Position numbers and translations under genes: made by a program
Assembly: GCA_036172245.1 (NCBI GenBank)
Contig: JAYWIR010000137.1
Coordinates: forward strand, 1-64,000
Length of the DNA stretch: 64,000 nt
Origin: Raillietiella orientalis
Taxonomy: Eukaryota
Reading direction: 5' to 3'
Notes under the pieces: model-generated
Told to the model about the DNA's origin: nothing
Database searches by the model: none
What the model saw: the letters and a program-made list of their open reading frames with translations, nothing else
In this document: positions 5,302 through 57,825 of the stretch, piece by piece
How positions within the stretch are numbered: position 1 is the stretch's first letter
Layout: each line of letters begins with the position of its first letter

Positions 5302-5517
5302 TCCCTTCCCTTACCCTCCCAACTTTTCTTTTCCTTTTTGTTTTGTTTTTTGTTTTTCCCCCTTCCCCCTGCTGCCGTTGTGGACCGTACCGGTCTGCGA
5401 ACCGGTGACCCGGCAGGCTCTGTGTTTCTTCGTGCGTGGCTGGAGCAATGGTCCAGACACCGCACGTCTTTGTAAAAGTTTATTTTCCAATAAACGCCCC
5501 GGCGTAATCCGGGTGAA

Positions 5518-18490: not shown

Positions 18491-20579
18491 CACAAGGCCT
18501 TCCATTGCGTAAATCAGGATCTGCTGCTGGAGCTCCTGGAACGTCTCGGTCTCCCAATGCACCTCGTGGAGTATTTGCGCGCTTGCTTGCGCCACGCGCT
18601 CATTTCCATCTCTTTTAGCGGCTGCCACGTGTACCGCGTGCCGGTGCGGCGTGGCATCAGGCAGGGCGACAGCTTATGCCGTTGCTCTCCAGCATCTTCT
18701 TTGAATTGGTGTTGAGGGCGTACATGCTGACGCTGGCCAACCTGCCGAGCTCTTGTCAAGGAACGCCGTCCGTGGCGGCCTATGCTGACGACCTGCTTCT
18801 CCTCTTACCCATGACCACCCCGAAGTCCAGTCTCGAGGATTTCTTCAAGCTGATTCGCCGTGGAGCGGCCATGAGCGTAAACCGGAGCAAGAGCGTGGTC
18901 GTACCAATTGGTGCGGCGTGGGAGGGGCAGTCAGGCAGGATCCTTCTGGGGATCCCGACCGCTTCCTCCATGCAATATCTGCGCGTTTCGCTGAGGAACA
19001 TCAGCCCAGTGGAAGTGTGGTCGGACTGCCTTAGGAAGTCTTCGAATTCCCTGAGCCCGTTCCACAACATCAGGTTCGTCCCGCCAGAGCGGGCCACGAT
19101 ATGGAACACCTTCTTTGCCCCCCTCTTGCTCTTATTGCTTTTTGTTTGCCCGCCCCCCTACTCGGCCAAGCTCCAGGCGCACAGCCTGTTGAGGAACGCT
19201 CTGTGGGGACCGGCGAGCTCCAGGATACGCCTCAATGACTTGGAGGCTCCGCGACGGGATGCTTGCTTAGGTTTCCTGACGCTGGAGAGAATCGAGCTGC
19301 AGGTGCAGCTTCGAATGTTGGCCCTGTGCGCCAACCTTTGAATCATTCCATGGTGCGCTCTTGCATGCCTGCTTCTGCGGCGCTGCACAGGCAGCGATGG
19401 ACTTCTGTCGCTGCGGCCGCACACGGACCGCGCCACGAGAAGCTTCGGTTTCACCTTGAAACCGCTGTACCGGCTCCGGGATGCCCAGGAATGGATCTCC
19501 TGCCGCCCATCGAACTTTCAAGCCTGGCGGCAGGAACCGCTGCATAGCTGTGTAAAGCACCAGGATGTTTCCCTCCTGGAACTTCGTTGCGCTCACCTGT
19601 CCCCGTATTGCACGGTGGACGACGTTTGCAACAGCCAGGAGAAGTGGATTCGCTTGGCCGTCACGCCGCTCGCCTACGCACTGTCAGCCCTCAGAGCAAG
19701 AGATGACAGCTGCGATCCGGCGAGATGGGAGGACGCCTGCACCATCGCAGGAACAACCCGACCTATTGGCGGCTGGTGGAATTGCGAGCTGGCAGATGCC
19801 GCCACGCCTCGCCACATACCGAAATGACTCCTTCGGTGGAGCGAACACTTGAGTGTGTCCCCCGAAGAACTTGTGGTCTCTCCTTCCTGTTTGAACACTT
19901 CTGTGTTCCCCCTTCCGTGGGAGCAGGACGTCATCATGCTGGTGCATTGGGGTTTTCACTCCAACCAGCAAACGAACCGTGTTTGCGGGGGAGTTGTCTC
20001 TTCAAACTGTAAGCGGTGCGGGGAAGTAAATACGCTCCCGCATCTGCTTCTGGAATGCGGTTCCCTTCTAGGACTGTGGCGGAGGCTGGCCTAAGCTCTC
20101 CTGCACCAGTTGGACACCGGGAGGGATTTGATGCGCCGCTTCTTCACGCCAGGCGGCCTGTATTTGGGTGCTGTCGTTGCAACCGTGTGTTGCACCCGCG
20201 CCATCGACAATGCCCACCGAGGGTTGGAGAAGCTGGCCATCCTTCGTCAGCCCACCGGATTAGCCTGCACAAACATGTCTTCGGCTACTGAGTGGACCCA
20301 TCTGCCACAGGGCGTAAGGAGAGAGATCGCCGGCATCCATCGCCGGTTTTGAAAGGAAGGAACGGACTCACCAAAGACCCCTGTCTTCTGCCCTCCATAT
20401 TTTTCTTCTATTTCTTCATAGTAGTGTATTTGTGGTCCCTTCCGTCCCGTTTCGGACTTTCGGCATACCGAGCTGCGTGTCGGGGATGTCACCACATTCG
20501 TCTCTTTTTTTCCTTTTTGTCCAGGAACCCTGTTCCCGGATAGATTACAATAAACGCTTCGGCGCTCCCGGGTTATAAA
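18491..20579 (+). mobile_element. Element E: RT from HKAF(D/H)C onward to the 3' end
   Basis: GIRQGDSL, YADD, CKRC..HL..C; terminal motif 20549-20579. Confidence 0.9.
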
Positions 20580-22370
20580 CAGCCGACCCTTCGCGATCGT
20601 GTTCATCTCCTGGACGTATGCCGCGGTGAAAACGTGGATCTCCTGCAACAGGGCCAGGTCGAACTCACGCAGGGTGTCGGCCGTTTCTCGTCTGTTGCCG
20701 TCGTCGCGCAGCCCGTTGACATTCCAACAGGCCACGCGTATCCGACGGCGACAGGCGAGCCCAGGTGTTAATCCTGGGAAAGTGGTTGTGCGGTGTACGC
20801 CACCTGTTGGGGCGGGACTCTTGAAGGTGGACGGGTCGGTGCGTCGAGCACCTGTTGCTCCTCCTCCATTGGTGTCGGCGCGTCAGTCGGATCGCTCGAG
20901 GTGTGGTCGCGCCTACCTGATTGCCCTCCTCCATAGGGGCGGGCTTTTTGGGTTCGGCGCATGCAGGTTTGGCTTCGTTACCCTGTTCACCTTCCTCCAT
21001 AGGCGTCGTCTGTGTCCCGGCTTCCGAGCGTGGGAGTTTCCCCTCCGGGTTTCCCACGCTGCCTTCGGCTTCCGGCTTCTTTCCCTCGTTCAAAACGGGA
21101 GGGCACTTCTTGGGCTTTTGGGACTTACGTCCTACCTTTCGAGGAGGTGCCTTCGTGGAGGATGATGAGTTTCCGGCTTCCCGGTCGGACTCATCTGCCG
21201 GAGGCATTCTCTTCGGAGTCGACCTGCGGACGCCCTTACGCGACGGGGTTTCGCGCTCGGCGAGCGTGACCGCGAGCTCCTCCGCGGCCTTCTCGAAGGC
21301 CGCGTCTTCGCTGCCGACGAACGTCGCCGCAGGCTTCTCCGCAGGCTTCTCGAAGGACGCGTCATCGCTGCCTGCCAACGTTGCCACTGGCTCCTCCGGG
21401 ACCTCATCGAAGGCCGCGTCATCGCTTTCGGCAAACGTTGCCGCGACCTCCTCCGCGACTTTATCGGACTCCTCCCTTTTGGAGCACGAGTCTCGCGTCT
21501 CACCCTGTAAACTTAGAGTGAGATCGTCCACGCTAGTTTCGATCGCGACCCCATCAGCTGTTTTCTGAACATTGCCGCGGGCCACCTCCGCAGGAACGGC
21601 TAAGCGTACCAATGCCACCGAGCACTCGCGGAGTTTTTTTGAAAACGGTGCGGCTTTTTTTTTTTGCCGGCAGTTTTCTTCTTCGACTTTTGCTCTCCCA
21701 GAATCTTCTTTTTTTCTCTTTTGACCTTAACCAGTTGCTATCCCTCCTCCACTTCCGCGTCTTCCGCGGTTTTATCCTCCGACGCCTGGGTGGGAGGAGA
21801 AGGAGATGGCGGCTGGGGCTGGCCAATGTCACGCGCTGGTATTTCCACCAGCTTTCCGCGCTTTCCCTGTACCTTTTTGGCAGCAGGTAGCACAGGGGTG
21901 GGACGCTTAGGGCATAAGCGTTTCACTTTCCCCTTCTCTCCGCATAAGTGGCACACCATGTTCGGGCACCTTTTTCTAAGATGCCCTACTGCATTGTAGT
22001 ACCCACAAAATTGGCGTTTCCACACGAACCAGAGGTATATGATTCTTGGCAGACCCCCAGTTTGTAAGGAAGCGCACCACCCTCTTTCACCGTGACACGC
22101 GCCGCGGTCTGGCCTCCGATAATGCTATTGAAGCCATCAAAAATCGTAGGCTTCGGCCACAACGCGTGCACCTCCCCGTGCTTTCGCAGCAGATCACCAA
22201 GTGCTAATCGCGTCATGCGTCTGGTGATTCTGGTAAGATGGACCACCACAGAGCGGTCCATCATCACCGGCAAGATCTTCCGACCATCAACGATCAGCGG
22301 GTCGGTGATCAGGCGTTGGGTCAAGGTGACATCTTTGCATACCTCCTCGACTTGCTGACCCCCGCTAAGA
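20578..22370 (-). mobile_element. Element F: 5'-truncated ORF1 and APE N-terminus (L/N-type)
   Basis: CHLCGEKG knuckle, TAACACCTGGG ORF1/ORF2 junction, WNVNG, LQEIH; ends at IAKGRL. Confidence 0.88.
21270..21470 (-). repeat. 57-bp (19-aa) coding tandem repeat, ~3.5 copies, in F ORF1
   Basis: DDAAFDEVPEEPVATLAGS / DDASFEKPAEKPAATFVGS / EDAAFEKAAEELAVTLAE. Confidence 0.85.
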
Positions 22371-23599: not shown

Positions 23600-24361
23600 C
23601 GAGCTCTCGAACGGCCAATGTCTGCAGATACTGGCGGAGGTGCTCAGCAGCCACCGAATTTCTCAACCAGTCGGCCGCTTCCTTCCAGACGGGCGTCGGA
23701 TGGACCTTGCCAGGCGGGAGTAGCTCAAAATCCAGCCTGTAGTGGTCGGAAAGCTCAGAGGGCACGGGACCTTTTCGACCCACCTCACAATGCAGGTGAG
23801 CGTCAAAGAACACATGGTCCGGCAAAGCACGCATCCCGGGATCGTCGTCCAGCAAATTCCAGGCGTGTGCGGACGCACACACCTCGTTCACCAGCCGTTT
23901 CTCCCGGAGGCGGTGAGACTCCTCCGATAGCGCGTGGACGTTGAAGTCCCCGGCTACGAGGTGAGCCACGTCGGGGCCGGAGTTGCTAAGCCAGCGGTCG
24001 CGCAGTCTCTCGAAAAACTCCAGCTACTCGGCGCGACGTGCGGAGCCGCACTGCGCGTACACGTTCGTGACGACAAGGTTGATCGATTCGGACCACTTGG
24101 AAACAAATGGCCTACACGACCTTCCTCGTCGAAACAAACAAACCGCACCACTCCCGCGACCCTGCCCCGGACAAGGAATGCGACTCCGCAGGAATTCTGG
24201 GAGCCTGACCTCCAATAGAGCGTCTTGCCTGAGCGAACTTGCAGATCGGCCGCTTGCTGCTTGGAGAGTGCGTGAATGTCATGCAGCAGGGCCATATCGA
24301 TGTCGCGCAAGACTTTGGCAACCAATCGCGTCTTCTGGTTGTCCTGCAGCCAGTTGACGTT
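23598..24361 (-). mobile_element. Element H: APE endonuclease fragment
   Basis: NVN, NVYA, GDFN, DHVF, SDH motifs. Confidence 0.85.
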
Positions 24362-24837
24362 AGGGAGGTCTGCAGCATTCCCCACAAACTGGTGGTCGAA
24401 GGCGAGACCTTCGACATCTGGTATGAGGGGAATCTGGAATACTGTGGCTTCTGCAATACGTCGGGTCACCTCAAAAAGAGGTGTCCCAATGTGCAGAGAC
24501 AACTATGCGGTACAATGGGGCACACGAGGGAGGTCTGCCCTCAAGCAGCAGTGCGGGTGGTTTCCAAGAGAATCCTTTAAAAACGCGCCCTGCTGCTGCA
24601 GAAAAACCTGGCGGCGAAAGCTACCGCAAAGGCTGTGCCACCCGCGCCCAAGGGCCAGGCCGCACCCGAGACCCCAGCAAACAACGCCGAACAAGACGAG
24701 GAAACTAGCCAGAAGCTTGAATGGCAGGTAACAACGGCCAAAAAGACGAAAAAAGAGAGAAGATTAGAGAAAAAGCTCGCGTATAGCCAGAAAAAACAGC
24801 AGGCAAGCCAGCAGATTAAAGACTGCAGCGTTATCGT
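24359..24837 (+). mobile_element. Element I, left part: ORF1 knuckle region, A family
   Basis: CGFCNTSGHLKKRC; ends at IKDCSVIV and resumes at 55262. Confidence 0.88.
24824..24837 (+). repeat. Left TSD of the J insertion, TGCAGCGTTATCGT
   Basis: Matches TGCAGCGTTGTCGT at 55262-55275 (13/14). Confidence 0.88.
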
Positions 24838-27259
24838 TTATTACCCGGATGCGCCGGGACGTTTATTAAAATATCAACTGAGAACTGTGTTCCCAGGCAA
24901 GGGAACAGAAAACAAGGAGTAGATTTCCCGGAACGCACTCCGGGCACACTGAGAGTTCGGAACGGGAGGGGGTGGGACAATAAATAAATAAACTGGGTGC
25001 GAGGGCGGGGACAGGGGTATACAGTCTAACCGTTCCTATTCTCAGAACAGGCGGTGAATGCCGCCGATCTCCGTCCTCACTTCTGCTCCAAGATGTGGCC
25101 ACCCGGAAGCCATTTGCAGGTTGCAGGCTGTGGTGTCGGGGACCGAAGTTGGGACTGCTCGCATCTGCAATACGTGGCGGGCCCTGACAATGGCGCGGAC
25201 GCAGCAGATGATTGCGACGACCGCTTCAAGAGAAAGTGCGCCACGCGTGTAGAAGCGACGTATCCAACCCAGTGCAGTGTGTACAGGGTGCAGGAGCGCT
25301 GAAGACAGCCGCTGCCACAGCTCCTGAAGGGCACCGCACTCAAAGAGCAAATGCGGATGCGATTCCACCGCTCCGCATTTGGCACAGTTCGGGGACGCAA
25401 ATCCCCCGGAAATCAGGTGCGCCCGCTTGTTGCAGTACAAACCCCAATGGACCAGCAGAAAAGCGTCCTGCTTCCACCGAAGGGGAAAGAGAGTCGCGTC
25501 CAAACACGCAGAAGGAACCACAAATTCATCGATGGGCACCCCGATGAGATCACTCTACCGGAGAAGCCCCTTTGCAAGAATGCAAGGTGTGGCAGCGTCT
25601 GACACTTCGCAAGTCCGCCAGCCGCCCAGCAGTCGGGTTTCGCCTGCGATTTCGCGACAGATCTCCCACCTCGCCGGCAGGTCACTGTCATCTCGCACCA
25701 TCAGTGCACACAGTGCTTCGGCGAGTGGCGTAGCGGCTAGGCGTGTCCACTGGTCCTGGTCTTCCAGCACCTCCCCCACTGGACAGTATGGGGAAAGTTT
25801 CACGCAACGGAGTTCCAAACGGGACACATCCTGTAGCGCTGCCCAGGACGATAAGGCTTCCCGCCTTTAGGCGTTGAAGTTCGTCGGCCGGCAGGAGATC
25901 CACTCATGCTTTCCCAGAAGCGTGACGAGCTGCTTCAAAGGGAAGCCGAATCCTCTCTGGGCGCGCTCCGTGCGCAGAGGCAACGAACGTAGTGCGTCGC
26001 CACCCGGGCTGCGCCGCGGCAGCAGTCGAACTGGATCACACCAGGGAGTAGTCCAGAGATGCGCACAAAGTGCCAGCATGCGGAACTGCACTAGCAGTCC
26101 GATCCGCTCCAGCGTCAGGATGCCCGATCCTGCATCCCGCCTAAGAACCGCCAAATCCTTCAGGCGTATCCTGGAACTAGCCGGTCTCCACAGTGCGTCC
26201 CGCAAGAGGCGTTGCGTCCGGCGCTTAGCCGAGTAGGGAGGGGGACAAACAAAAAAGAAAGGACGGAGGAAGGGGGCAACGAAAATGTTCCACACGAAGG
26301 CATGTTCCGACAGGAGAAACCTGCCGCCTTGGAACGGGCCCAGAGCAGTCTCGGCCTTGTGAAGGCAGTCCAACCACGCTTCTGCTGGACAGAGGGCGCC
26401 CAAGGGAACGCCGAGGTACTTCAAGCACCTGCCCGTGAGGATCCCCTGGCGGATCCAGTCGGACTGCACCTCCCACGTAGAGCCAACCGGTACAACGGTT
26501 GATTTCGTCCTGTTCACGCTCAGGAACGCTCCCCGACGAATGAGCTCGAAGAAGTCCTCGAGCCTGGACGCCGGGGTGGACATGGGCAGCAGCAGGAGAA
26601 GGTCGTCAGCATAGGCGGCCACGGCCAGTGTTCCCGGACAGGAGCTCGGCAGGTTGGCCAGCGTCAGCCTGTACGCCCTCAGCACCAACTCAAAGAAGAT
26701 GCTGAAGAGCAGGGGGCTTAAGCTGTCTCCCTGCCTGATACCCCGCCGTATGGGAACAATGTACACGTGGCGCCCGCTGAGAGAGATACAGCATAACGCG
26801 TGGCATCAGCAGGAGTGCAAGTAGGCGATGAGCTGCGTCGAGAGGCCTAGGCGTCCCAGAAGCTCCAGAAGGAGGTCCTGGTTTTCGCTGTCGAACGCTT
26901 TGCAGAGATTTACGGCGACTGCTAAGGCTATGGAGCCGCACCTTTGCTGAGGGGAGAGAAGCGGGAACATCTCCCGTCTCACGCATCAGCGAGAAAGGGC
27001 TTAGCACCAGGGGGACGAGCTCCGCTGCGAAGCACTGAAAGAACTCCGCGGGCAGGCCATCCTCCCCAGGCGTCTTCCGCGTCTTCAGGCCCACTATGGC
27101 AAAAGATACTTCTTCCGCCGTGAAGGGCCAATCCAATCTGGCGCTTTCCCTCTCGTCGATAGCAGGGTTCCGCGTCGGAAGAAGCAGCACGGAGAGACTG
27201 CGTTCCGTGGGCTCCTCCGCGTACAACGAGGAGTAGAAGCGCTCGACTGCGCGGTGCAC
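24838..27259 (-). mobile_element. Element J, 3' part: RT with internal deletion, zinc finger, 3' end
   Basis: PGEDGLP, GIRQGDSLSP, YADD; collinear with C including the 3' UTR; terminal motif 24868-24838. Confidence 0.9.
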
Positions 27260-27413
27260 ATCGGACGCAATTGTTGTGCGCTTCTTGGATAGGGAGTTTT
27301 TATTTTCTGGTGTTTCGTGTGTGTTTCGCGGCCGTTGACAGGCGGAAATGCCTGTGAACGCCGCAGTTTAAGGTGAGGGAGGCGGGAAGACCGCGTCTCC
27401 CAAGCCAAAGGAG

Positions 27414-28958
27414 GTGGGATCACGCCCCACCGCTTCTCAACCCGCCACTACGGCGAGGGCGTGGAGCGCGGTGGCAGCGGCGGAAACGCCCGATGTCGCC
27501 GCCGAAATCCAATCCTACATCCAGGAGGGCTACAATCCGGCCCTCCTGTACAAGGTAGGCAATTTATATTCCCCGTTAAGGGCGAGAAAGTTCGGCAATG
27601 CCATCAAAAAGATGGGCATTGCCGACCATGAAATTCTTTGCCTCTCTATACGGAGCGGAGGGCAGTTGGCGGAGCTCATCTGCAAGGATGCAGCTCTTAC
27701 CCACAAGATGCTCTGCACGCCCGTACAATTTGAGGGCAGGAATTTACTCCCACACACGGTGGACCACTCCATTGTGGTCCACCTAACAGGGACAACAGTG
27801 CGGATGGATGAGAACGCCATCCGCGCTGAACTGGAAAAATACGCAAGCGTTTTCGCGATGTGGAGAAAGCCCAACACCTTCGGAGTGAACGGTGCATTTA
27901 GTGGGCGAGTAGGCGCGCGCGTGACGCTTCGAGAAAGCGTACAGCTTCCCCACAAGCTCCAAATTGGCGACGAGTTCGTCGACATTTGGTTTGTGGGGAA
28001 ACCTAAATTTTGTGGAAACTGTAAGTCGTTCGGGCATTTGAAAAAGCGGTGCCCGGACGCGGTTTGCCCAACGTGCGGCGCGAAGGGCCACACCAAAGTG
28101 GTGTGCCCGATGAACGTCGCTCCAACGCCGGAACTTCCGCAAAAGAAGGAAGGGAAGGCAAAAATAGTGATAAACCCCACAAAAGGGGATCAGCCGTCGG
28201 CTCCGACAAAAGTCGCGCAGCAGGAAAGGGACACGGTACAGGAGCTCCCGGAAAAGACTGCCGACGTGGAAGGCTGGCAGCTGGTCACCCGTAAAGTAAA
28301 AATCGTTAAAAAAACCGCGCCCGCACCGGCGAAAGTGGTGAAGGGCAAGGGGAAGGTCGCGCCACGCCCAACAATCAAAGCGTGCAGCGTGGCCATCAAA
28401 CGCGTGCCGGCGATCGATACTCGCTCCGCTGACGGATCGATGCGACGTGACGTCACACCAGCTGTTCAAGCCGCCGCCGCGCGAACGCCGACGCCGCGAC
28501 AAAGTCGCGAGCCCAGCGTGAGCAGCGACGACCGGGACTTCAACAAGGCGGCGAAAGAGTTGGCAGCCATGCTCCAGCAGCCTCCCAAGGCCCAGAAGAA
28601 GGCCTTGAGGCGTCCGGCTCAGGCGAAAGAACCGGAGACTTCAAAGTCCGAAGCCGAAGCCGGCAACGCTCCGGCTGTCGCTCTCCCGAAGCGCAAAGCG
28701 GGCCGCAAGGTAGGCGACCCGCGGCGCTCCGCACCTCCACTGGCGGAGGAGGAAATGCGGTCGGACCACGACGACGAGGAGGCGATGTCCGCGAGGTCTC
28801 GCCACTCCTCGCCGGAGACGTCCCTGGCCAAGCAGGATCCTCCAACCACCACCATAACCACCGACGGACCGCCTCATTGCGAGCAACAGCCCGTCGCAAT
28901 GGATACACAACTCCCGCCTGCTGAACAGCAGGCGGAGGACGGTAAGCAAGCACAATAA
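27414..28958 (+). CDS. K ORF1, largely open
   Basis: CGNCKSFGHLKKRC and CPTCGAKGHTKVVC. The likely original ATG at 27348 is followed by an early TAA. Confidence 0.75.
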   Translation: MGSRPTASQPATTARAWSAVAAAETPDVAAEIQSYIQEGYNPALLYKVGNLYSPLRARKFGNAIKKMGIADHEILCLSIRSGGQLAELICKDAALTHKMLCTPVQFEGRNLLPHTVDHSIVVHLTGTTVRMDENAIRAELEKYASVFAMWRKPNTFGVNGAFSGRVGARVTLRESVQLPHKLQIGDEFVDIWFVGKPKFCGNCKSFGHLKKRCPDAVCPTCGAKGHTKVVCPMNVAPTPELPQKKEGKAKIVINPTKGDQPSAPTKVAQQERDTVQELPEKTADVEGWQLVTRKVKIVKKTAPAPAKVVKGKGKVAPRPTIKACSVAIKRVPAIDTRSADGSMRRDVTPAVQAAAARTPTPRQSREPSVSSDDRDFNKAAKELAAMLQQPPKAQKKALRRPAQAKEPETSKSEAEAGNAPAVALPKRKAGRKVGDPRRSAPPLAEEEMRSDHDDEEAMSARSRHSSPETSLAKQDPPTTTITTDGPPHCEQQPVAMDTQLPPAEQQAEDGKQAQ

Positions 28959-29839
28959 ACACACCAACGCGTGGACTCTCCTTTTGCCGGCGACTGCGCG
29001 TAATCTGTTGGAACGTCAACGGGTTGCGCGACGACGGCAAGAGGAGAGAAGTGGCCGCCAGCCTGCGGGACTTCGACCTGGCGCTTCTGCAGGAGACGCA
29101 CGTACTCTACGCAGGGGAGGCCCAGGAAATCGAACGGATCGCAGGAGGGCGGCTCGTATACCAAAACGGGAGAGACCACACCCGCGGTGTGGCTTTCATG
29201 CTGAAGCCAGCCGTCGTTAATGCGCTGCGCGACGTGCACTTCGACGGGGATGGTCAAATCGGGCATCATGTTGCCAAGTGGTCCGACGCGATCGACCACG
29301 TCGTGACCAACGTTTACGCGCCCGGCACGAGCCACAGGCGCGGGGAACGCACTGCGTTCTTCGAAGGCCTGCGGCGAGATTGGCTGGCCGAAGCAGACAT
29401 GCGAAAGGCGCACCTCATTGCCGCGGACTTTAACGTCCGCCTGCTGGCAGGTGCGCCCGACATTCGCGCACAGCTGGTCAACGAGATGTGCGCTGCCATG
29501 CACGCGCGCAACTTGTTGGCCGGTGACGCCGGGACGGAGACGAGGATCGACCACATGTTCCTCGACAACCACTTGTGTTCGCGGGAGGGAAATCGAGGGG
29601 CAGTGCCATCCGAACTCTCCGACCATCCCCGGCTCGTGCTAGAAATACACCCGCGCGGTAGAGGTCCACCCTCCACAGCGTGGCGTTTGCCAGGGGACTG
29701 GTTGCGCCTCGCAGGAGCAGCGCAACATCTTCGCTTGTTCCTACAAGGCTTCCATCTGCAGTCACTCGCGGACTGGGACGACTTGAAGAGCTCAGTCCGC
29801 GAGTTCTGCGACCAGTTTCCCCTGAACCGTCTCCCTTCA

Positions 29840-29849
29840 GGTTTCGGCG
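29840..29849 (+). repeat. Target/TSD copy 1, GGTTTCGGCG (L/N target)
   Basis: Related copies at 41543-41552 (GGATTCGGCG) and 47206-47215 (GGATCCGGCG). Confidence 0.8.
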
Positions 29850-32800: not shown

Positions 32801-33191
32801 AACTGCTCACAGAACTCGCGGACCGATTCCTTAAAAAGGTCCCAGTCCTGGATATTCCGGAGCGTGACGCCTCACAGGTATTCGCGAAGGTGTTCCTTCG
32901 CACCTGAGAGTCGCGTCCAGTCCCCCGGCAGACGCCAATCCCTGGATGGCGGTCCTTTGTCGCGAGGCCGCATCTGGAAAATTAGCCGGGAATGGTCCGA
33001 CAACGTCGACACAACCCTCCCCCGTTTGCCGACGCGTGAACACAGGTCAGCGTCCAGGAAGACGTGGTCGATGCTGCGGACCATTCCTTTCTCACCCGCG
33101 AACAAGTTGCGCGCACGCATGGCGACGCACAACTCGTTCATCGCGTTCACTTGTGTTTCCGGCTCACCTGTTAGCAGGCGGAGATTAAAAT
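29850..33191 (-). mobile_element. Element L, 3' part (ORF2 from FNLRLL to the 3' end)
   Basis: Nearly identical to N ORF2 and 3' UTR but frameshifted; terminal motif 29881-29850. Confidence 0.92.
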
Positions 33192-41542: not shown

Positions 41543-41757
41543 GGATTCGGCGTTGCCACCCGGGTACGCCCGGGGCGTTTATTAATAAACTTTACATGCG
41601 TCGTACAAGGTCCCACCACGGCCGTAAACACAGGACCTTTCGGGACACTGGGACGCAGCCCGGCGTGGCACTCCCCGAGAGCGAAGGGGGATGGGGATGA
41701 GACAAAAAGTAAAATAAAAAGAAACAAACAAAAAGAAGTTGGAGGGCAGGGAAGGGA

Positions 41758-44700: not shown

Positions 44701-45354
44701 CGACAACGTCGACGCAAGCCTCCCCCGTTTGCCGACCCGTGAACACAGGTCAGCGTCGAGGAAGACGTGGTCGATGCTGCGGACCATTCCCCTCTCACCC
44801 GCGAACAAGTTGCGCGCACGCATGGCGGCGCACAACTCGTTCATCGCGTTCTCTTGTGTTTCTGGCTCACCTGTTAGCAGACGGAGATTGAAATCTCCCG
44901 CTATCAGGTGAGCCTTCCGCACGTTCGTGTCCGCCAGCCAGTCGCGCTCCAGGGAATCCAGCAGCCTGGTACGGTCGCTGTATCCCTGTTTACCGCTGGG
45001 GGCGTACACATTCGTGACGATCAATTCGATCGAGTCGGACCAGCTGAGAATCAGCTGACCGACCCGACCGTCGTCATCGAAGCGCACGCCCTTCACGGCA
45101 GCGTCGATGGCCGGCTTCACGAAGAACGCGACCCCGCAGGTGTTGCGGAGGCCGCACCGCCAATACAGCCGACCCCCCGCGATCGTCTCGATCTCCTGGG
45201 CGTCTGCCGCGGTGATCACGTGGATCTCCTGCAGCAGGGCCAGGTCGAGCTCACGCAGGTTGTCGGCCGTATCTCGCCTGTTACCGTCGTCGCGCAGCCC
45301 GTTGACGTTCCAACAGGCGGCGCGAATCCGACGGCGACTGGCGAGCCCAGGTGT
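41758..45354 (-). CDS. N ORF2: APE endonuclease, reverse transcriptase, zinc finger (~1,198 aa, no AUG before the APE)
   Basis: Open frame from the ACA codon overlapping the ORF1 TAA through WNVNG, LQEIH, GDFN, SDH, WRPITIVNTDAK, YADD, KYLG and CARC..HL..C. Confidence 0.92.
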   Translation of the reverse strand, partial: TPGLASRRRIRAACWNVNGLRDDGNRRDTADNLRELDLALLQEIHVITAADAQEIETIAGGRLYWRCGLRNTCGVAFFVKPAIDAAVKGVRFDDDGRVGQLILSWSDSIELIVTNVYAPSGKQGYSDRTRLLDSLERDWLADTNVRKAHLIAGDFNLRLLTGEPETQENAMNELCAAMRARNLFAGERGMVRSIDHVFLDADLCSRVGKRGRLASTLSDHSRLIFEMRPRDKGPPSRDWRLPGDWTRLSGAKEYLREYLRGVTLRNLKDWDLFKESVREFCEQFPLDRLSPGFGEGARNHRANLQARRYERTPNVRRLAEYRAGAERQAWQSGSASLLDDQGRECSSPASVRHLVRSFYSSLYARQPPDRNASRRLLPDGAPAIGEEEMESLDEPFTTGEILAGNKELKRRKAPGEDGLPAEFFQSFAEELAPLLLKLIRLIRDEGDVPASFRSARVRLLPKGGDLRDLKNWRPITIVNTDAKLIAGLWASRLGQVAESVISPEQTYAVLGRSMDANLFFASTWVHLQRREKKGIGKVGNPTLGPPAGLGGDPRAGKGALALVVDLQKSFDCVDQELLLELLGRMGFPPSLISYLRSCWRNAIITVSFSGQKAYGVPVRRGIGQGDSHSPLLFSTYFELVLTAYRVTLAPLPSSCPGTPAVAAYADDLLLLLPMSTTAKAVEDFFDLLSRGTGLQVNRAKSSVVPIGAAWAGQQDWVRLGIPTARCFKYLGVPLGDYSPAEAWSSCLQKVEMAIGPFLEGKFHLPERAAVWNAFAAPILRPLLFVCPPTVESKKRTKDLLRISLWGKGRPRVPLKDLCAPRRDGVLGLLTLERVEKQLRWRTLAIAAKMWCTPWCTPARLLASRVSRCDGLASFLLSRGRKMRRCGLLLGRMATLAKENSWMVCCPANSPAWLEENIGTWAVVNQRNHETWNRLRCSPYARCTLRNLLESSARCTWAETTCLATALPFLRRALHSTRTPRWQVSCCIEGREKLISGWTTGELTDASTPSLQPRGLLRWGELLAIPRDELKWPPVIKESRILPLKWQESALLLLHWGLPCNARRFHCTRGAVDPACARCGERESLPHLIVDCAALRSLWERFGTTLGLPTGSTPRDVLRPLFVKDALQPAAAIAALCCVRVIVGAWSDANNEGVGPQARDVIPYAKRFLRRAAGWPQLGNMQADLEGFVRRMGPPHSQQ

Positions 45355-47109
45355 TATTCCTGGGAAGATGGCGATGCGGCGTCCGCCACCTGTTGGGGCG
45401 GAACGCTAGGTGGAGGAGGAGGGTCAGGCGCTGCGTGCACCTGGTCCCCCTCCTCCATGGGTAACGGCGCGTCGAGGGGGTCACCCTTAAGTGGGGTGGC
45501 GCCTACCTGTTGGCCCTCTTCCATGGGGGGGGGGCTGTTCAGGCTCGGCGACTGCAGGGAGGACTTCGCCCCCCTGCTCACCCTCCTCCATTGGGGTGGC
45601 CGGCTCGACGGCTTCCGCGCGTGGGAGTTCCCCCTCCGGGATTCCCACGCTACCGCTACCTTCCTGCTTCTCCTCCTCGCTGGTGGAGGGGAGGCGCCTC
45701 CTGGGTTTCTGAGACTTGCGTCCCGACTTCCTGGGGGGTGCCTCCGAGGAGGAGGATGCACTTCCGGCCCCCAGGTCCGACTCACCAGTGGGGGCCTTTT
45801 TCGCGGGAGCCGGCCTTCGCACGGCCTTGCGTGAGGGGTTCTCACGCTCCGCCAGCGTGGCCGCGAGCTCCTCCGCCGCCTTTGCGAACGCGGCGTCCGC
45901 AGTGTCGACCGGAGCGTCGCGCGGCTCACCCTCTGTGTAAACAGAGGGTTCGTCGTCGCGAACCTCGGGCGCGGCGGAAACGGCGAGGGAAGGCTCGTCG
46001 CCCCGGGTGGCAATCTCGGGAACGGCTATGCGCTCCAGTGCTACCGTACATTCCCGCATGGTCTTAGAGCGCGGCCCAGGTTTTTTCGCCTTGCCGGCTG
46101 TCTTTTTTACCGCTTTCGCGGGTTCCGCGGGGTGCACCTTTTTCTCCTTTCTGGCCTTGACCAGCTGCCAGCCGTCTTGGGCTCCCGCGTCTTCGGAGGG
46201 TTTTTCTTCCGACGCCTGTGTGGGAGGAACAGGGGCTAGCGGCTGCTGCCGGCCAGTATCTCTTTTTGGTCTTTCGACCAGTTTACCGCGTTTTGCCTGT
46301 GCTTTTTTTGCAGCAGGCGGCACCGGAGTGGGGCGTTTAGGGCATACGCGGCGTACGTGGCCCTTCTCCCCGCATAAGTGGCACACAATGTTCGGGCACC
46401 GCTTGCGCACGTGTCCTACTGCATTGCAGTAGCCACAAAAGCGGGGTTTCCCCACGTACCAGAGGTCTACGACTTCGCCATTGACCTCTAGTTTGTGGGG
46501 AAGCCCACTCTCGTTCACCGTCACGCGCGCGGCGGCCTGCCCTCCGAAAAGGCTATCGTAGCCATCGAAGATTGTGGCCTTTGACCAAAGCGCGTGAACA
46601 TCTCCGTGCTTTCTTAACTGATCACCAACCGCAGACCGCGTCATGCGGCTGGTGATCCCTGTCAGATGGACCACTACGGAGCGGTCCATCGTGACTGGTA
46701 GGATCTTGCGTCCGTCCACGTTCAGCGAAGTGGTTATCAAGCTTTGCGCTAAGGTGATGTCCTTGCAGACAACCTCAACGCGCTGACCCCCGCTTAGCAC
46801 GGATAGACCGTTAAGGTCCTTTTCTAACACGTTGGCGTTCTGCATCGCTTTCGAAAAAGCGCGTGCAGTTCGCCCGTCAAAGAGATTGCCTACCTGGTAA
46901 ACCAAGCTGGGCTTGTACCCAGCTGCCCGGTAGGCCGCCATCTCGGCCATGGTTTCCGCGCTCGGCGCGGCCACCATGGCGCTCCAGCTCCTCGCCTTGA
47001 GCGGCGAGGGCGATTCCGGGGCGGACGCCCCTGATTCTGTAGGCTGTGGGGGTGGGCAAGCCTCCCCCACACCTACCTCCATCGTGGTGTCCTCAGGCAT
47101 CGCTGCCAT
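45354..47109 (-). CDS. N ORF1 (two CCHC knuckles), one frameshift in a homopolymer
   Basis: CGYCNAVGHVRKRC, CHLCGEKGHVRRVC; the frame changes at the G10 run 45525-45534; ends SQE*. Confidence 0.82.
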
Positions 47110-47205
47110 CGGACACCAACGATGTTCCACACCAAACAGCACAAGAAAAAACCGCTTCCTTTCGACTCACTCGGGAGCGAAGGAAAAACACGTCCACTCG
47201 CCAAG

Positions 47206-50188
47206 GGATCCGGCGGAGGGCTGAAGAACGACCGGGCATACCACCACGCTCGTCTTCACTCTAGGTCTCCCGACGTTCGGCGCCTGGCGGAGTATAAAGC
47301 TGGGCCTGAGGGACAGACCTGGCAAGCCGGGTCGCCCAGCCTGCTGGACGCCCAAGGCCAAGAATGCTCAGCTCCGGCGAGAATAAACCGCATCCTGCGG
47401 GACTATTACTCCTCTTTGTACGCGCGCAGAACAACGGAGCGCGCCGTGGCGCAGCGCTTGCTGCCGCAAGGCGCCCCCGCGCTGCAGGAGGAGCAGGCAC
47501 ATGAAATCGCGGAGCCTTTCTCGATGGCGGAGATCGTCTCCGCCATCGGAAAGCTCCGAAAGAGGAAAGCACCAGGGGAAGACGGTTTGCCCGCGGAGTT
47601 CTACCAAGGCTTCGTGGCGGATCTGGCCCCCCTGGTGCATCGGCTATGCATGCTGATCCGAGAACAAGGGGACGTCATCAAATCGTTCCGGTCAGCTAGA
47701 GTACGTCTCCTGACGAAAGGAGGAGACAATCGCAACGTAGGCAACTGGCGTCCCATCACAGTATTGAATGCGGATGCGAAGTTGCTTGCCAAGCTTTGGG
47801 CTGAGCGACTGGGACGGGTGGCGGAATCCGTGGTGAGTCCGGAGCAGACATACGCTGTTCCCGGACGAAGCATGGAGGCCAACCTGTTCCTCGCCAGTAC
47901 ATGGTGGCAGTTGCAACAAAGCGAAGACCAGGGAGGTCAAGAGAATCCTGGATTCTCCTCTAACCGGGAAGGGGAGGCATTTCTTGGAAGAGCCGCGCCC
48001 GGTGCCCTTGCGGTCGCAGTCGATCTGCGTAAAGCGTTCGATTGCGTCGACCAGGAACTGCTTCTGGAGCTCCTGGAACGCTTGGGATTCCCGGCCGTCT
48101 TCCGGGCTTACCTGCGCTCCTGCTGGCGCTTCGCTCTAATCAACATTTGTTTTAGCGGCCGGCACGTGTACGGCGTGCCGGTTCGGCGTGGCATAAGGCA
48201 GGGTGACAGTCTGAGCCCCATGTTCTTCAGTATCTACTTCGAGCTGGTGCTGAGGGCATACAGGGAGACTCTGGCAACCCTGCCAAGCTCGTGTCTTGGC
48301 ACGCCTGCCGTGTCGGCCTACGCCGACGACCTTCTGCTTCTGCTCCCCGGGTCCACCCCGGCGTCGGCGCTCGAAGATTTCTTTGAGTTGCTGCAACGCG
48401 GGACGGGCCTCGAGGTGAACAGAGAGAAATCTTCCATCGTTCCAAAATCACCACAACTTTTCAACAATACGGCGTGGGCCGGACGGCCAACCTGGATCCT
48501 TTTGGGGATCCCCACGGGCAGGTGCTTCAAGTACCTTGGCGTTCCGTTGGGGGACTTCTGCGTTGCAGAAGCCTGGTCCGACCGTCTCCAAAAGGTGGAG
48601 TTGGCGATCGGCCCGTTCCGGAACAGCGAGTTTTACTTGCAGGAGCGGGCCGCAATGTTGAACGAGTTAGCGGCCCCCTTCCTTCGCCCCTTACTTTTTG
48701 TTTGCCTCGCCCCTCCCATCATACAGAGACGGACCGAAGCCATCTTGAGGACTGCCCTTTGGGGCACAGCGAGGTCGGGAGTCCGATTGAAACACTTGTG
48801 CGCTCCACGCAGGGATGGTGGCTTGGGCCTCCTTACGTTGGAGCGCATCCAACTTCAAACAACAATTCGAAAGTTAGCCCTTGCGGCTAGCTAATGGATG
48901 ACGCCATGGTGCGATCCGGCACGGCTCCTCGCCAGAAGAGCGACTTGCTGCGAAGAATTGTCCTCGATCCTCGTGGCCTACCAGCGCAGCCTCTCCAACT
49001 GTGGTCCCGATTTGCGGCAGATGGTCGCCCTGATGAGGGAGAATGCCTGTATCTTCTGCATCCCCGCGAACTGCACTGCCTGGCTTCAGGAGTCAGCTTC
49101 CGCGTGGGCTAAGATCAAGGGCGCGAGCGAGGCGGAATACAACTGCCTACGTCTAGGACCGTACGCTCGACAGCCGCTGCAGGACATTATGAACACGCCC
49201 CGGAAGTTTCTGTGGGCTTCTTTCAGCCGCCTTGCCCCCGTTCTATCCTCCCTGAAAAACAGTAGGAGTAGCAACGAGCTGGAATCGTGGGAAGTGTCCT
49301 GCCTCATCCGAGGCACGAAAAAACCTTTAAAGGCGTGGACCACTCGGGAGATCACGGACGCTGCCACCCTGAGCGTCCCGCCTCACGCACTTGCGCGCTG
49401 GGGAGAGCTGCTCGCAATACCTCCGGAGGAGGTGAAGTGGCCCCCAGCGTGTTAAGATTGCGGCACACTCCCGTTGAAGTGGCAGGAGACGGCGTTGCTA
49501 TTTCTGCACTGGGGACTGTTAAGCAGAGCACGCCTGTCTCACTGGACACTGGGAAATGTGGATGCCCGCTGTGTCGAGTGCGGAGAAAGAGAAACCTTCC
49601 CGCATCTCACCTTCGAGTATGTCGCCCTGGATGGACTCTGGAGTCGAATCTCCCCAATCCTCCATCTTCCAGTAGGCGACCCTAAGGAAATTTACCGTCG
49701 CCTCTTTCTGCGTGACGGCCTGCGCCCCGCTGCGTCTCTAGCAGTCCTCTGCTGCGTGCGTGGCATTGTGCAAAGGTGGCACGCCAGAAGAAGAGGCCCA
49801 AGATGCAGGGACGCCATCCATTGGACGACGATCTCTTTAGAGACGGCGACAAGGTGGCGTCTACCTTTCAGAGTTAAAACAGAACTTGACTGCATCTTGA
49901 ACAGGATGCTGAGGACCGACCCAGGCGCCCAGTGATCCCTTCCTTGCCCCCCCCCTCCCCATACAACTGTTTCCCTCCCCGTTGTCTCTCTTTTTGTTTG
50001 TTTTTGTTCTAGTTTGATCTTCCCATGCGCCTCGGGAATGGACCTAACCGGTTTATGCACCGGCAACAGACACGTCAACCAAAGTGGGCAAACCAAGTGT
50101 TTCCCACAATTAACTTTTGAAAGTCTTTATTATCTAATTTTTGTAAAAAATTAGAATGATAAATGCCCCGGCATATCCGGGTGGCAAA
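47206..50188 (+). mobile_element. Element K, 3' part: RT, zinc finger, 3' end
   Basis: Resumes K at G|GGLKNDRAY; PGEDGLP, DLRKAFD, YADD; terminal motif 50158-50188. Confidence 0.9.
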
Positions 50189-50861: not shown

Positions 50862-50867
50862 CTTAGC

Positions 50868-52855
50868 AGTTAGCCCTTGCGGCTAGCTTATGGATGACGC
50901 CATGGTGCGATCCGGCACGGCTCCTCGCCAGAAGAGCGACCGGCTGCGAAGGATTGTCCTCGATCATCGTGGCCTACCAGCGCAGCCTCTCCAACTGTGG
51001 TCCCGATTTGCGCCAGATGGTCGCCCTGATGAGGGAGAATACCTGTATCTCCTGCATCCCCGCGAACTGCACTGCCTGGCTTCAGGAGTCAGCTTCCGCG
51101 TGGGCTAAGATCAACGGCACGAGCGAGGCGGAATACAACTGCCTACGACGAGGACCGTACGCTTGACAGCCGCTGCAGGATATTATCAACACGCCCCGGA
51201 AGTTTCTGCGGGCTTCTTTCAGCCCCCTTGCCCCCGTTCTGTATCCCTGAAAAACAGTAGAAGCAGTAACGAGCTGGCATCGTGGTAAGTGTCCTGCATC
51301 ATCCGAGGCAGGAAAAAACCTTTAAAGGCGTGGAGGACTCGGGAGCTCACGGACGCTGGTACCCCGAGCGTCCCGCCTCACGGACTTGCGCGCTGGGGAG
51401 AGCTGCTCGCAATACCTCCGGTGGAGGTGAAGTGGCATCCAGCGTGTTGGGATTGCGGCACACTTCCGTTGAAGTGGCAGGAGACGGCATTGCTATTTCT
51501 GCACTGGGGACTGTTAAGCAGAGCACGCCTGTCTCACTGGACACTGGGAAATGTGGATGCCCGCTGTGTCGAGTGCGGAGAAAGAGAAACCTTCCCGCAT
51601 CTCACCCTCGAGTGTGTCACCCTGGATGGACTCTGGAATCGAATCGCCCCAATCCTCCATCTTCCAGTAAGCGACCCTAAGGAAATTTACCGTCGCCTCT
51701 TTCTGCGTGACGGCCTGCGCCCTGCTGCGTCTCTAGCAGACCTCTGCTGCGTGCGCGGCATTGTGCAAAGGTGGCACGCCAGAAGAAGAGGCCCAAGATA
51801 CAAGGACGCCATCCACTGGACGACGATCTCTTTAGAGACGGCGACAAGGTGGCGTCTACCTTTCACAATAAAAACTGAACTTGACTGCATCCTCAACAGG
51901 ATGCGGAGGACCGACCCAGGCGCCCAGTGATCCCTTCCCTGCCCCTCCCCTCTCACCATACAACTGTTTCCCTCCCCGTTATCTCTCTTTTTGTTAGTTT
52001 TTGTTTTAGTTTTCCCTTCCCATGCGCTTCGGGAATGGACCTAACCGGTCTATGCACCGGCAACCGACACGTCAACCAAGGTGGGAAAACCAAGTGTTTC
52101 CCACAATTAACTTTGAAAGACTTTATTATCTAATTTTTGTAGAAAATTAGAATAATAAATGCCTTGGCATATCCAGGTGGCAAACTTCGGCTGCAGCCGA
52201 GCATTCCTGGCCAACGACATCGAGCAGACATGCCGCTCCAGACTGCCAAACCAGGCGCTCGGCCCTGTCCTTATACTCCGCCGAACGCCGGACGTCCGGG
52301 CATCGTGAGAAGGTACGCGCCTGCAGATAGGATCTGCTGTTCGCGACACCCTTCCCGGAGTTCCGGGGAAGCAGGTGCAAGGGGAACCGGCAGCAGAACT
52401 CGCGGACTGATCTTTTCAGATCGTCCCAGTCCTCGAGTTCACAGATGACGAAGCACCGGAGGTGTAGGCGGAGATTCTCCGCCGCCTCCGAATTGCTAAG
52501 CCAGTCGGTCGGCAACCTCCAGACATTTATCGGAGGCCCATCAATGCGGGAGAAGCTCGAACTCCAGTCTAGAATGATCCGAAATCGCGGACAGCAGGCG
52601 CCCTCTCCTACCAACTCGTGAGAGCATGTGTTCATCGAGGAACGCATAGTCCGGCGATCTCTTCATCCCGGGCTCACTAGCAAGCAAGTTTTGCACGCGC
52701 ACGGACGCGCATAGCTCGCTCACCATTTGCTTCTCCCTCAAGAGGCATCTCTCCTCTGTTAGCAGGTGGACGTTGAAGTCTACCGCAAGGAGGTGCGCCA
52801 CGTTAAGGCCGGAGTCAGCGAGCCATTGACTGCGCAGGCCACCCAAGAATGCAAG
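50868..52855. repeat. ~2-kb direct duplicate of 48871-50861 (K 3' end plus adjacent J segment)
   Basis: Collinear over the whole length, including the K/J junction. Confidence 0.88.
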
Positions 52856-55261
52856 TCGCTGGGCGTAATGCCGGCCTCCGCTCGGCGCGTAGATGTTCGT
52901 AACGACCAGGTCGATCGATTCGGACCACATGAGGAAAAGTTGGCCCACACGACCTTTCTCGTCGAAACAAACGTTCCGCACCTCCTCCGCCACCCTGCTT
53001 CGGACGAGGAACGCGACTCCGCACGTGTGCGCGGAGCCTCGCCGCCTGTGTAGCGTCCCGCCCGCCCGCTCATCCAGATCCGATGCCTGCCGTACGGAGA
53101 TGCTATGTATCTCCTGCAGCAGCAGCTGATCTAACGCGCGCAAAGCGTTGGCTACCGTCCGCCTTTTGTCAGCATCACGTAGCCCGTTGACACTCCAACC
53201 GGCCACGGTGACGCGACGAGCGGACGCGAATCCACGCATCACTGCTGCGGACATGACGGAGTGCTCCTCGCCCCGTCCGGCGAGAAGTCAGCTGGTAGGA
53301 GAGCGGATTGGGAAGCGGAATCGCTCCCGTTCCATGCCACATCGCGCCCAGCTGAGTCCTGGGAGCCGAGGATCATCGCCTCGGTCTCCGTGCAAGAGCC
53401 GAAACCGCCTCCGGCAACAGGCTCGTGCATTCGCACTTTAGCCCGGCTCGCTGCCGGCTTACCCCGGGATGCGCGCTCCATTTGTTTGCACTTGGACTCC
53501 ACCTCGGAGTCCGAGTGCCGGGCGCTTGATTAACGTTTTGCCATTCTCTTTTTGTTCCGGCAGGTGGAGGCTTGCCCTGCCCGCGCGGAGGTCGTCGCAG
53601 TCGCCAACGCAGCTTCCGGAGCTTTGGCTTCCGCAGCCGCCCTCTCGCGCGAAGCGACGGAGACAGAGCACGCAGCCGTAGTGCGTACCTGGGTACGCAC
53701 GTTCTTCGGCGTGCTTCTCTTTTGCCTCCCACCCACCTTAAGGATGGGGAATATTGAAGGGTCAACCTTCTTCTTCCCCTTTGTGGGCGTCCTGGAGACT
53801 CGAGTCCAGCCCGCGTCGGGGACGCCCTCCTGGGAGGCCGACGCCTCCCTCAATTGTTTGGCCGGAGATGCCGGCTCAGGTTTCGCGCTCGCGGCGAGAG
53901 ACGGCTCCGTCCCCGTTATGCACTGCACCTGCTCCTTAGTTGATGCGGGCGAAACGGCGGTCATTGCCGTCGTCCCACGAGGCGCTATTGCAGCCTTCGC
54001 TGCTGGTGCCTTCGGCGTGGAAGACGTGATCTCCACCGCCGTAGGAGTAGACTGCCGTTCAGAGGCAGCTCCGAGGGTACCCGCGCACGGTTTCCCGTGT
54101 ACTCCGCTGGACGCGCAAGCGGACACGGACGGTTCAGCAGCCTTGATTGAGTGTGTGCCCGCACTCTTAGGCTGCTTCGAAGGTGGCGATTTTCCCCCAG
54201 GGCGACGTGGCATCTTTGCCGTCTGCGCGGTTGTCTGGGATAGTGGCTTTCCTGATGCAACCGCGCCCTTATTCGCGGGACCGCCACTCGAAGATGCCCC
54301 GCCCTTCGCGTCCGATTTCTCCCGTGGCACAACGGGGGATCTTTTCGGCGCGGACGGGGTCGATTGTTGGCGGCTTTTCGCCTGTCGCTTTCTCTTCAGC
54401 TCGGCGCACTCTTTGATGGAGTGGCCGAGCTGTTTACAATAGCGGCAGTTGCGTGGAGGGCACGTCCACGGACGGTGGCCCTCTGCACCGCAAATGCCGC
54501 AAGCCGGTCGCTGACCTGCAAATTTAAGGTGGACGATCGCATCGCCCACCTGCAAGTGCGGAGGCATTTGCCTATTATCCGCCATGGTGACACGCGCCAT
54601 GGCAAGTCCGCTGTGGAGAGATGCAATCCTTTTGATCGGATTGTCTGCTCTCCACAGCGCGTGCACCGTGGCGAATACACTTAGTGCAGCGACGAGCACG
54701 CAATCGGGCGTGTCCACCTGGACGGCGGATAATCGGACCACGAACGACTGGTCCATGGCCGACGGGACGACCTCCTTCCTGCGGATATTTAGCAAGGTGC
54801 GGAGAAGGAGATGGACTAGGGATGCCTCTTTGCAGTGCTCCTCCCAGCTTTCGAGCGCGTTAACCGGCATGACGGCCAGGAGGTCGCCCTCTCGGACCCG
54901 ACGCGCAAAAGCTCGTCCCACAAATTTTCTCCGACCCCGTCGAAGATAGAAGCACTCACCGGATAGCAGAGCGCAGGCTTGTAGCCATGGGCTGCATATG
55001 CCTGCAGCTCTGCTTCGTCGGGCGGTGCTCCGTTGGCTGCCGCCACCTTGACGACGGCGGCGAAGCTTCTCGCCGGTGGCGAGACACAAGAATCAGAGGT
55101 GGACCGGACATCTGGAGTAGAGTCTCTACTGCCAGTAGCAGCCTCCACATCCATCTCTTGCTGCAGGGGCTCCGTGGACATCCCAGTGGACGCACTCGGG
55201 CGCACCACACACAAGAAGACGGAAAGGATTCACGTTCGAGGAGCAACACAGAACACGTCCT
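52182..55261 (-). mobile_element. Element J, 5' part: 5' UTR, ORF1, TGATG junction, APE
   Basis: GGACGTGTTC 55260-55251; CGICGAEGHRPWTC, CRYCKQLGHSIKEC; TGATG 53241-53237; WSVNG, LQEIH. Confidence 0.88.
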
Positions 55262-55817
55262 TGCAGCGTTGTCGTCGAGCGTATTACCGACAGCTGCGAA
55301 AAAGAACTAAACGCTACCGATGACAATCCCTCTGATGACTCTGTCAACAGCGAGGAGAGCGAATCGGCGGCGGCGTCTTTCATCGACACCACCATCGATG
55401 TAGCCTTCGCGCGAGCCTCTGAGGAGCTCGCTGCCTCGTTGCAGCCAGAAACCTCCACGGCAAGCAAAAAGGCCGTTAGGCGTCGGACCTCCCCTCAGGA
55501 GTCCCCCACTTCCGACCCCGAGGTGGAGGCCGGAAGCGAAGCCTCCGTTTGCACGGCACCACGCAAGAAGGCTGGACGTCAGTCCACAAAGCCGAGAAAG
55601 CTCGTCTCTCCCGTCGAAGCGGAAGAGATGGCTTCCGCAAGCGAGGGTGCCATGAGCGTGAGAAACTCGCGGGACCCGTTGCCCGAGAGACTCCCACGCG
55701 CGGACAAGTAGGGGATGTAGGGGAAACAGGCCGGAAAGGTGCTTCAGGTGCCTTAAAAGGCGTAAACCCCCATGGACATGCCGCAGGCGTGATCTCTGCA
55801 GAATAAGTGCAAGAGGT
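55262..55817 (+). mobile_element. Element I, right part: ORF1 C-half plus a short APE remnant
   Basis: Starts with the TSD and aligns with A 1148-1670; then jumps to VISAE (A ~1857-1885). Confidence 0.85.
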
Positions 55818-56435: not shown

Positions 56436-56450
56436 TCAGCCTGTTTTTTA

Positions 56451-57814: not shown

Positions 57815-57825
57815 GGCTTTCGGCG

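Follow-up and report, generated by a model that had tools for sequence, protein, structure and literature searches.

Composition of the window and type of element

A 64-kb stretch of the Raillietiella orientalis genome (NCBI GenBank assembly GCA_036172245.1, contig JAYWIR010000137.1, positions 1 to 64,000 of the forward strand), referred to here at its full length as the window, was found to be built largely of long interspersed nuclear elements (LINEs) inserted within one another, and we describe evidence that diverged lineages of these elements probably target precise sites in each other's genes. Matches to LINE open reading frames (ORFs) or to another copy covered 58,885 of the 64,000 bases (92%), and the gaps corresponded to untranslated regions (UTRs), to spacers between ORFs and to the final 1.1 kb. 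The GC content was 54-64% along the entire window. Six-frame reading revealed numerous long frames, and tblastn searches with the intact ORF pair of one copy, N, as queries placed ORF1 and ORF2 fragments on both strands, tiling the whole window (letters as in Table 1). No host gene was seen in the 64 kb, in agreement with an initial annotation of this DNA, which had proposed that the array could grow without hitting host genes.

Pfam searches of the frames identified Exo_endo_phos and RVT_1 in ORF2 (3.1e-12 and 2.1e-19, respectively, in N, with further copies also positive) and zf-CCHC in ORF1 (23.4 bits in N against a cut-off of 20.8), while zf-RVT scored under its cut-off. An N-terminal apurinic/apyrimidinic (AP) endonuclease domain followed by a reverse transcriptase (RT) is the ORF2 arrangement of APE-type LINEs, and the CCHC zinc knuckle of ORF1 is that of L1/Tx1-like LINEs. 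Both reading frames were open in N only. The elements were without terminal repeats; their 3' ends were defined, their 5' ends were truncated to varying extents (G, E2 and S are among the truncated copies), and they had target-site duplications (TSDs) of 7-11 bp, as is usual for LINEs. All lineages had in common a 5' motif, GGACGTGYTTT, of which 8/8 matches lay 4-20 nt from an element start, and a 3' end in which AATAAACG is followed by a short GC hairpin and then by GTGRYAA, without poly(A). Of 13 matches to the tail pattern, 11 lay at annotated 3' ends, and all 11 tails ended in GTGRYAA with the target directly after. In an alignment of the 3' hairpins 88.3% of cells were paired, which was no better than shuffles (124/500), and the row for P was mis-cut. 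TGTAA and AATAAA words were noted just upstream of the terminal hairpin, for example at 41582-41640(-), 5470-5490(+) and 50130-50160(+); TGTAA is a polyadenylation signal in green algae.

The copies fell into at least nine lineages, with 33-72% identity in ORF2 between lineages. In protein searches the nearest named proteins were only 24-33% identical, and the 33% match, a sea turtle 'unnamed protein product', was uninformative on family. A 619-aa metagenome protein from an environmental contig (P0024) was 67% identical to ORF2 of A and N, the next matches being no higher than 34%, so that this LINE group has relatives beyond the Raillietiella genome. A metagenome scan with the tail pattern yielded 41 loci, of which 0/41 were related by blastn or tblastn. 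Of the words sampled from the window, 46% were present in one public DNA sequencing run, and no RNA run was listed as containing them.

Junctions between the elements

The initial annotation had read five insertions as a chain, namely D (A family) into E, E into F (L/N-type), L and N into K, K into J, and J into I (A family), and all five were recovered at nucleotide resolution. Insertion of J into I was marked by an 11-bp TSD, AGCGTTATCGT (24827-24837) and AGCGTTGTCGT (55265-55275), around a 30.4-kb block which opened with the J tail and closed with the J 5' end, ORF1 of I continuing across it. Within this block, the insertion of K into J was flanked by a 7-bp TSD (ACATCGG at 27258 and ACTTCGG at 50188), with ORF2 of J resuming at the same codons (aa 366-371). 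L and N were both found in K at a 10-bp site present in three copies, GGTTTCGGCG (29840-29849) after the L tail, GGATTCGGCG (41543-41552) between the N tail and the L 5' end, and GGATCCGGCG (47206-47215) before the N 5' end. When L and N were removed the K halves joined in frame (CGT CTC CCT TCA GGA TCC GGC GGA, RLPS/GSGGG), matching RLP.GSG.G of the relatives. In the other nest, the E tail (...GGGTTATAA) ended at 20578 and was followed by antisense F from ORF2 aa 81, and the complete 5' end of D, with its GGACGTG motif at 18479, adjoined E at 18491, within the HKAF codons of RT motif A. This last edge was inferred from one side, the other half of E being outside the window.

Beyond the chain, M was flanked in L by a 9-bp TSD, GATTAAAAT (33183) and GATTGAAAT (39100); the two parts of L overlap by 9 bp on N, which carries the empty site at 44886. 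The G/F and H/I junctions were internal-to-internal. A breakpoint at ORF2 aa 873/874 seemingly shared by G and S was rejected, as F reaches ~22372 and G thus starts near aa 880. A later tandem duplication of ~2 kb (48872-50858 and 50868-52852, 91.4% identity) covers the junction of the K tail with J, so that the second K-3'-end/J junction (52183/52184) arose by copying of the first rather than by a separate insertion.

Repeated use of the same sites

For four of the five edges of the chain, the window contains a further, independent insertion located at the identical nucleotide in another host copy. J2 was inserted in D at the same nucleotide as J in I, with flanks ACAACGACGCT and ACGATAACGCT. 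J2 and J were 89.8% identical (2151 nt), while their hosts D and I were 79.1% identical (483 nt), D being closer to A (88.4%); because the hosts were more diverged than the inserts and D was nearer to A, this pair is not a duplicated block. E2 lay in Q at ORF2 aa 80/81, the position homologous to that of E in F, and E and E2 were 88.7% identical. Their hosts, F and Q, shared 84% identity over the first 206 nt, which are conserved, and 55.6% further on. The tail of A adjoined antisense B after ...CAC AAA GCA TTC GA and the 5' end of D adjoined E before CAC AAG GCC TTC CA, so that, judged from these flanks, the two insertions would fit one site at the KAFD codons with a 14-bp duplication, seen in two hosts from opposite sides. 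L and N were distinct elements at the same K site, 94.6% identical in the 3' two-thirds and 76% in the 5' third, and a second head-to-tail pair, S and T, had a common copy of CGCCGAAAGCC and stood beside the K-like U.

For each of the J, E, A and L/N lineages, two insertions into different copies of the target thus coincided in nucleotide and orientation, as is characteristic of sequence-specific LINEs. On a rough estimate, not a computed one, coincidence of position and orientation would be expected at ~5 in 11,200 per pair. Among the copies retaining the position, the J-lineage site was occupied in 2/3, the E-lineage site in 2/6 and the KAFD site in 2/10. Empty target sites were carried by the intact N and by A, bearing out the suggestion that new insertions bring fresh targets. 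Resolved insertions were antisense to their host in 14 of 15 cases (p ~0.001), or 10 of 11 by site type (p ~0.012), the exception being M in L; an antisense insert puts the primed nick on the sense strand of the host, which might reflect a transcription-linked step. Together, the junctions indicate insertion that is specific in lineage and sequence and would be target-primed.

An alternative would be non-specific piling-up of elements in a tolerated gene-free or heterochromatic region, the repeated junctions having arisen by later segmental duplication of composite pieces. The tandem duplication described above is indeed one of a junction-bearing piece, few events were sampled, and both the KAFD and the GFG target sites are conserved motifs at which breakpoints could coincide. 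Duplication of composite pieces would, however, leave hosts and inserts equally diverged, and the hosts were far more diverged than the inserts (79.1% versus 89.8%, and 55.6% versus 88.7%), with D closer to A than to I. Moreover, the insertions of A in B and of D in E were seen from opposite sides in different hosts, the 5' thirds of L and N differ, and so strong an antisense bias is unexpected from random insertion. We thus regard piling-up as improbable.

Membership of the lineages

The letters A to N were not defined in the initial annotation and were assigned from the order of first appearance and from two coordinates, 18491, which is the D/E junction, and 55275, which is the end of the target duplication at J/I. 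An alternative lettering, with D starting at 18491, would place D in the M/J clade and leave the chain open; it was rejected as it clashes with the end coordinate and with consecutive lettering. D was accepted as 17291-18490 because the coordinates and the consecutive letters fit, and the ORF1 tree agrees.

In this tree A, D and I formed a clade with support of 100/100. They were 66-81% identical to one another and at most 45% identical to all other lineages over ORF1 aa 121-384, with D and A sharing 88.4% of nucleotides and 81% of ORF1 residues. F was placed with L (96/94), next to N, the identities being 67-72%, and the N-terminus of its ORF2 was 75-77% identical to L and N and at most 60% identical to other lineages. 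Failure of F to group with L/N, or of D and I to group with A, had been named as grounds for abandoning the proposal, and neither was observed. E, J/J2 and M constituted a separate superclade (99/99 for the RT region, 100/100 for the C-terminal region), G grouped with A (98/99), and ORF1 of K was ~40% identical to both A and N. With these memberships the junctions do return to the starting family, as had been proposed, A entering E, E entering L/N, L/N entering K, K entering J and J entering A.

Identity between L and N reached 94.6% in ORF2 and at the 3' end, compared with only ~76% (66-72% in amino acids) over ORF1 and the 5' UTR (39100-41542 versus 44886-47205). The pattern suggests module exchange between lineages, in which case family assignment depends on the part compared.

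J and J2 had in common an internal deletion of ~290 nt, by which ORF2 aa ~477-572 including the N-terminal RT motifs were lost (15138-15215 and 26915-27030, compared with 35700-35812 in M). The lineage carrying this deletion was inserted at least twice, and J would appear to be a non-autonomous deletion derivative moved in trans.

Cyclic targeting and the wider web of insertions

As mentioned above, the initial annotation had presented the chain as a closed five-member targeting cycle of the rock-paper-scissors type. Its five edges and their closure are real, but the ring is neither closed to others nor exclusive. Seven further edges were found (M in L, B in J2, A in B, G in H, P in I, Q in R and C in B), among at least nine lineages, and the graph also contained a second 5-cycle and a 3-cycle within one nest, in which A entered a B-type element, the B-type entered the J lineage and the J lineage entered A. 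When hosts were shuffled among inserts (20,000 trials), some cycle appeared in 99.7% and a cycle of length five or more in 42%. Closure is without statistical weight because shuffled graphs are nearly always cyclic; where every lineage has its target within another lineage, a cycle is forced. A directed cycle was present; the edges were not confined to the ring, and cyclicity did not exceed chance.

A strict ring of five families, each entering only the next and all five being kept by cyclic inactivation, is in our judgement a shade less probable again than piling-up. It would account for the five edges and the closure, four of the five being replicated. The seven edges outside it and the 3-cycle do not belong in such a ring, M in L and B in J2 already counting against it; the target of the A lineage is common to all lineages; J lacks RT motifs and is not an autonomous player; and cycles arise in nearly all shuffles. 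Rock-paper-scissors dominance would, in addition, be a claim on fitness, while the cycle seen in these sequences appears to be one of insertion relations.

That the nesting is false, created by chimeric joins between repeat copies during assembly, is very unlikely: the region is highly repetitive and, of the listed pieces of short public contigs mapped to the window, none extended across a junction with 31 bases to either side, but the junctions lie exactly at canonical tails and 5' ends, carry TSDs, and restore the host frames when the insert is removed, which is not what misassembly would yield. The 'opposite strand' joints that were checked in mapped public contigs (31380/43064-48619, 35374-48064, 35639-47821 and 44477-47209) were considered as insertions and rejected as cross-lineage mapping artefacts joining homologous aa positions.

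Element map

The elements were arranged in two nests with a depth of up to five (Table 1). In the first, F holds E, E holds D, D holds J2, J2 holds B, and B holds A and C, the left halves being outside the window; in the second, I holds J, J holds K, and K holds N and L, the latter with M inside it. C is a much more distant LINE, its ORF2 being 25% identical to that of N; its 5' UTR is richer in AT, and its tail (…GGGGAAA) differs from that of the other lineages.

Table 1. Elements and target sites in the window, with positions counted from its first base
Feature	Position	Strand	Description
A	9..5519	+	near-complete A-lineage element; tail adjoins antisense B exactly at KAFD codons
C	~7900-13644	+	distant LINE, between ORF1 and ORF2 of B
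J2	15138..17290	+	second J-lineage copy, in A-lineage ORF1 of D
D	17291..18490	-	A-lineage 5' part: 5' UTR and ORF1 aa 21-384; 3' side cut by J2
E	18491..20578	+	ORF2 aa 584-1161, 3' UTR, tail; M/J superclade; host of D at KAFD, itself in F
F	20579..~22372	-	L/N lineage; ORF1 aa ~121-551 and ORF2 aa 3-81; cut by E at ORF2 aa 81
G	~22373-23598	+	A-like LINE fragment
H	23599-24354	-	LINE fragment
I, left half	24355..24837	+	A-lineage ORF1; ends in TSD copy AGCGTTATCGT (24827-24837)
J, 3' half	24838..27264	-	ORF2 aa ~366-1206, ~290-nt internal deletion; tail GGGTAATAA
K, 5' half	27265..29839	+	5' UTR, ORF1 (528-aa frame), ORF2 aa 6-~308
L, 3' part	29850..33191	-	ORF2 aa 172-1215 and tail; 94.6% to N
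M	33192..39099	-	full-length element inserted in L, sense orientation
L, 5' part	39100..41542	-	ORF2 aa 1-173, ORF1, full 5' end
N	41553..47205	-	ORF2 41761-45405 (1215 aa), ORF1 45490-47166 (559 aa); head-to-tail upstream of L, same K site
K, 3' half	47206..50187	+	ORF2 aa ~308-1208, tail GGGTGGCAA; 48872-50187 repeated at 50868-52183
J, 5' half	52184..55264	-	5' end, ORF1 (520-aa frame), ORF2 aa 15-371; duplicated piece at 50188-50858
I, right half	55265..55817	+	begins with TSD copy AGCGTTGTCGT (55265-55275); cut by P tail at 55818
P	55818-~56445		M/J-clade 3' fragment, tail GGGTGAGAA, antisense in I at ~A-coordinate 1690
T	~56869-57814	-	5' end adjoins L/N-type site
L/N-type site, second locus	57815..57825	.	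GGCTTTCGGCG; between S tail and T 5' end
S	57826-59068	-	tail adjoins L/N-type site
U	59069-~59660	+	K-like fragment beside S/T locus
E2	60028..60349	+	3' end of second E-lineage copy, in Q
Q	60350-~62340	-	L/N-like host of E2
R	~62341-62868		LINE copy

After P, two A-like pieces were found out of order (56452-56605 and 56607-56889), one of them inverted, and 55818-56889 is an older rearranged zone. The last 1.1 kb (62869-64000) was without LINE similarity, long frame or second copy in the window and may represent either the border of the cluster or a further repeat.

Discussion

The explanation that we favour, with a probability of about 0.8, is that nine or more diverged lineages of one LINE group, with an APE endonuclease and reverse transcriptase in ORF2 and a CCHC ORF1, are clustered here. 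They would insert through target-primed reverse transcription, each lineage at nucleotide-precise sites of its own within the ORFs of other LINE copies, mostly antisense. Each insertion would split its host, make a 7-14-bp duplication and deliver new copies of every other lineage's site, so that the array would grow inward, nest within nest, as where I holds J, J holds K, and K holds L (with M) and N. The specificity may reside in the endonuclease encoded by ORF2, in the 3' tail, or in the two together, and the five-step loop would be a by-product of this web of targeting between transposable elements rather than a special ring. The broader picture, of a guild of sister lineages with diversified short sites in each other's ORFs, nearly always on the antisense strand, and with J as a non-autonomous member, forming a self-feeding web that yields cyclic insertions and large gene-free, possibly centromere-like arrays, is one towards which we lean only slightly.

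Several observations weigh against targeting of this kind. The events number only ~15 and come from one window, in which the tandem duplication (48872-52852) demonstrates that segmental duplication operates. The truncated 5' boundary of I (24355) adjoins H at ORF2 aa 33 and not at KAFD, which means that H has entered I or that the A lineage is bound to its site less than strictly. For G, an A-like element (58% identity), the insertion site is a different one, at H aa 284. The expected duplication was absent in the 8 bases to the left of the A 5' end, and a TSD for C was looked for and not found. The KAFD codons are conserved in all lineages, yet 2/10 copies are occupied, as given above. Finally, GGATTCGGCG is present in the ORF2 of N itself, so that the L/N lineage may not be K-specific.

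If correct, site-targeting among sister lineages would provide a compact natural example of a radiation of target specificity in an AP-type endonuclease system, and an ecosystem of transposable elements in which host genes are left untouched and the members disable each other. It would also represent a possible route to transposon-built, centromere-like arrays. That nearly all insertions are antisense may reflect strand specificity at some step of target choice, and the intact N provides an endonuclease that is open to testing on a known 10-bp site.

Comparison with known systems

R1 and R2 (28S ribosomal DNA) and SART and TRAS (telomeric repeats) are site-specific LINEs, R2 using a restriction-like endonuclease. 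As far as the available descriptions go, the elements of the window resemble them in a fixed site and orientation, a 3' end sharing target bases and head-to-tail double insertions. In contrast, their targets are host repeats, while here they are the ORFs of sister LINE lineages.

Double insertion of a transposable element at one site, giving tandem dimers, is described in a study on the origin of satellites in Drosophila populations (bioRxiv 10.1101/158386). The L/N and S/T pairs, head-to-tail with one target copy between, are alike in arrangement; cross-lineage targeting does not feature in the portion of the Drosophila work consulted. APE-type LINEs of the Tx1 clade enter a defined position of another transposon family, as with Tx1 in Tx1D, Tx1-Mar in Mariner-N4_AMi and Tx1-9_AMi in Harbinger (PMC4494074). 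Compared by description, the targets of the Tx1 clade are DNA transposons whereas here they are other LINEs, and the account of that clade, in the sections available, describes no reciprocal or cyclic targeting. In a literature search covering one library, neither cyclic targeting nor the targeting of precise mutual sites by sister LINE lineages was found to have been reported.

A further likeness is to Zepp and ZeppL, L1-type LINEs of green algae (Chlorella, Coccomyxa and Chlamydomonas) which form nested clusters by insertion into existing copies (PMC8226300, PMC3446292). Such clusters were found in the window too, and, compared by description, both are gene-free nested LINE clusters of high GC that target existing copies. 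Zepp differs in that it is described, in the excerpts at hand, as self-nesting, with tandem arrays of 3' ends, whereas the window has several lineages cross-inserting at precise sites, mostly antisense and with many copies full-length. The 3' end of Zepp is also poly(A), unlike the tails of the window, which end in GTGRYAA in all 11 cases and are without poly(A). Site specificity has already been described for LINEs that enter host repeats or DNA transposons, and Zepp is known to nest in itself. A set of related lineages, each aimed at exact positions within the genes of the others, would, if true, constitute a different case.

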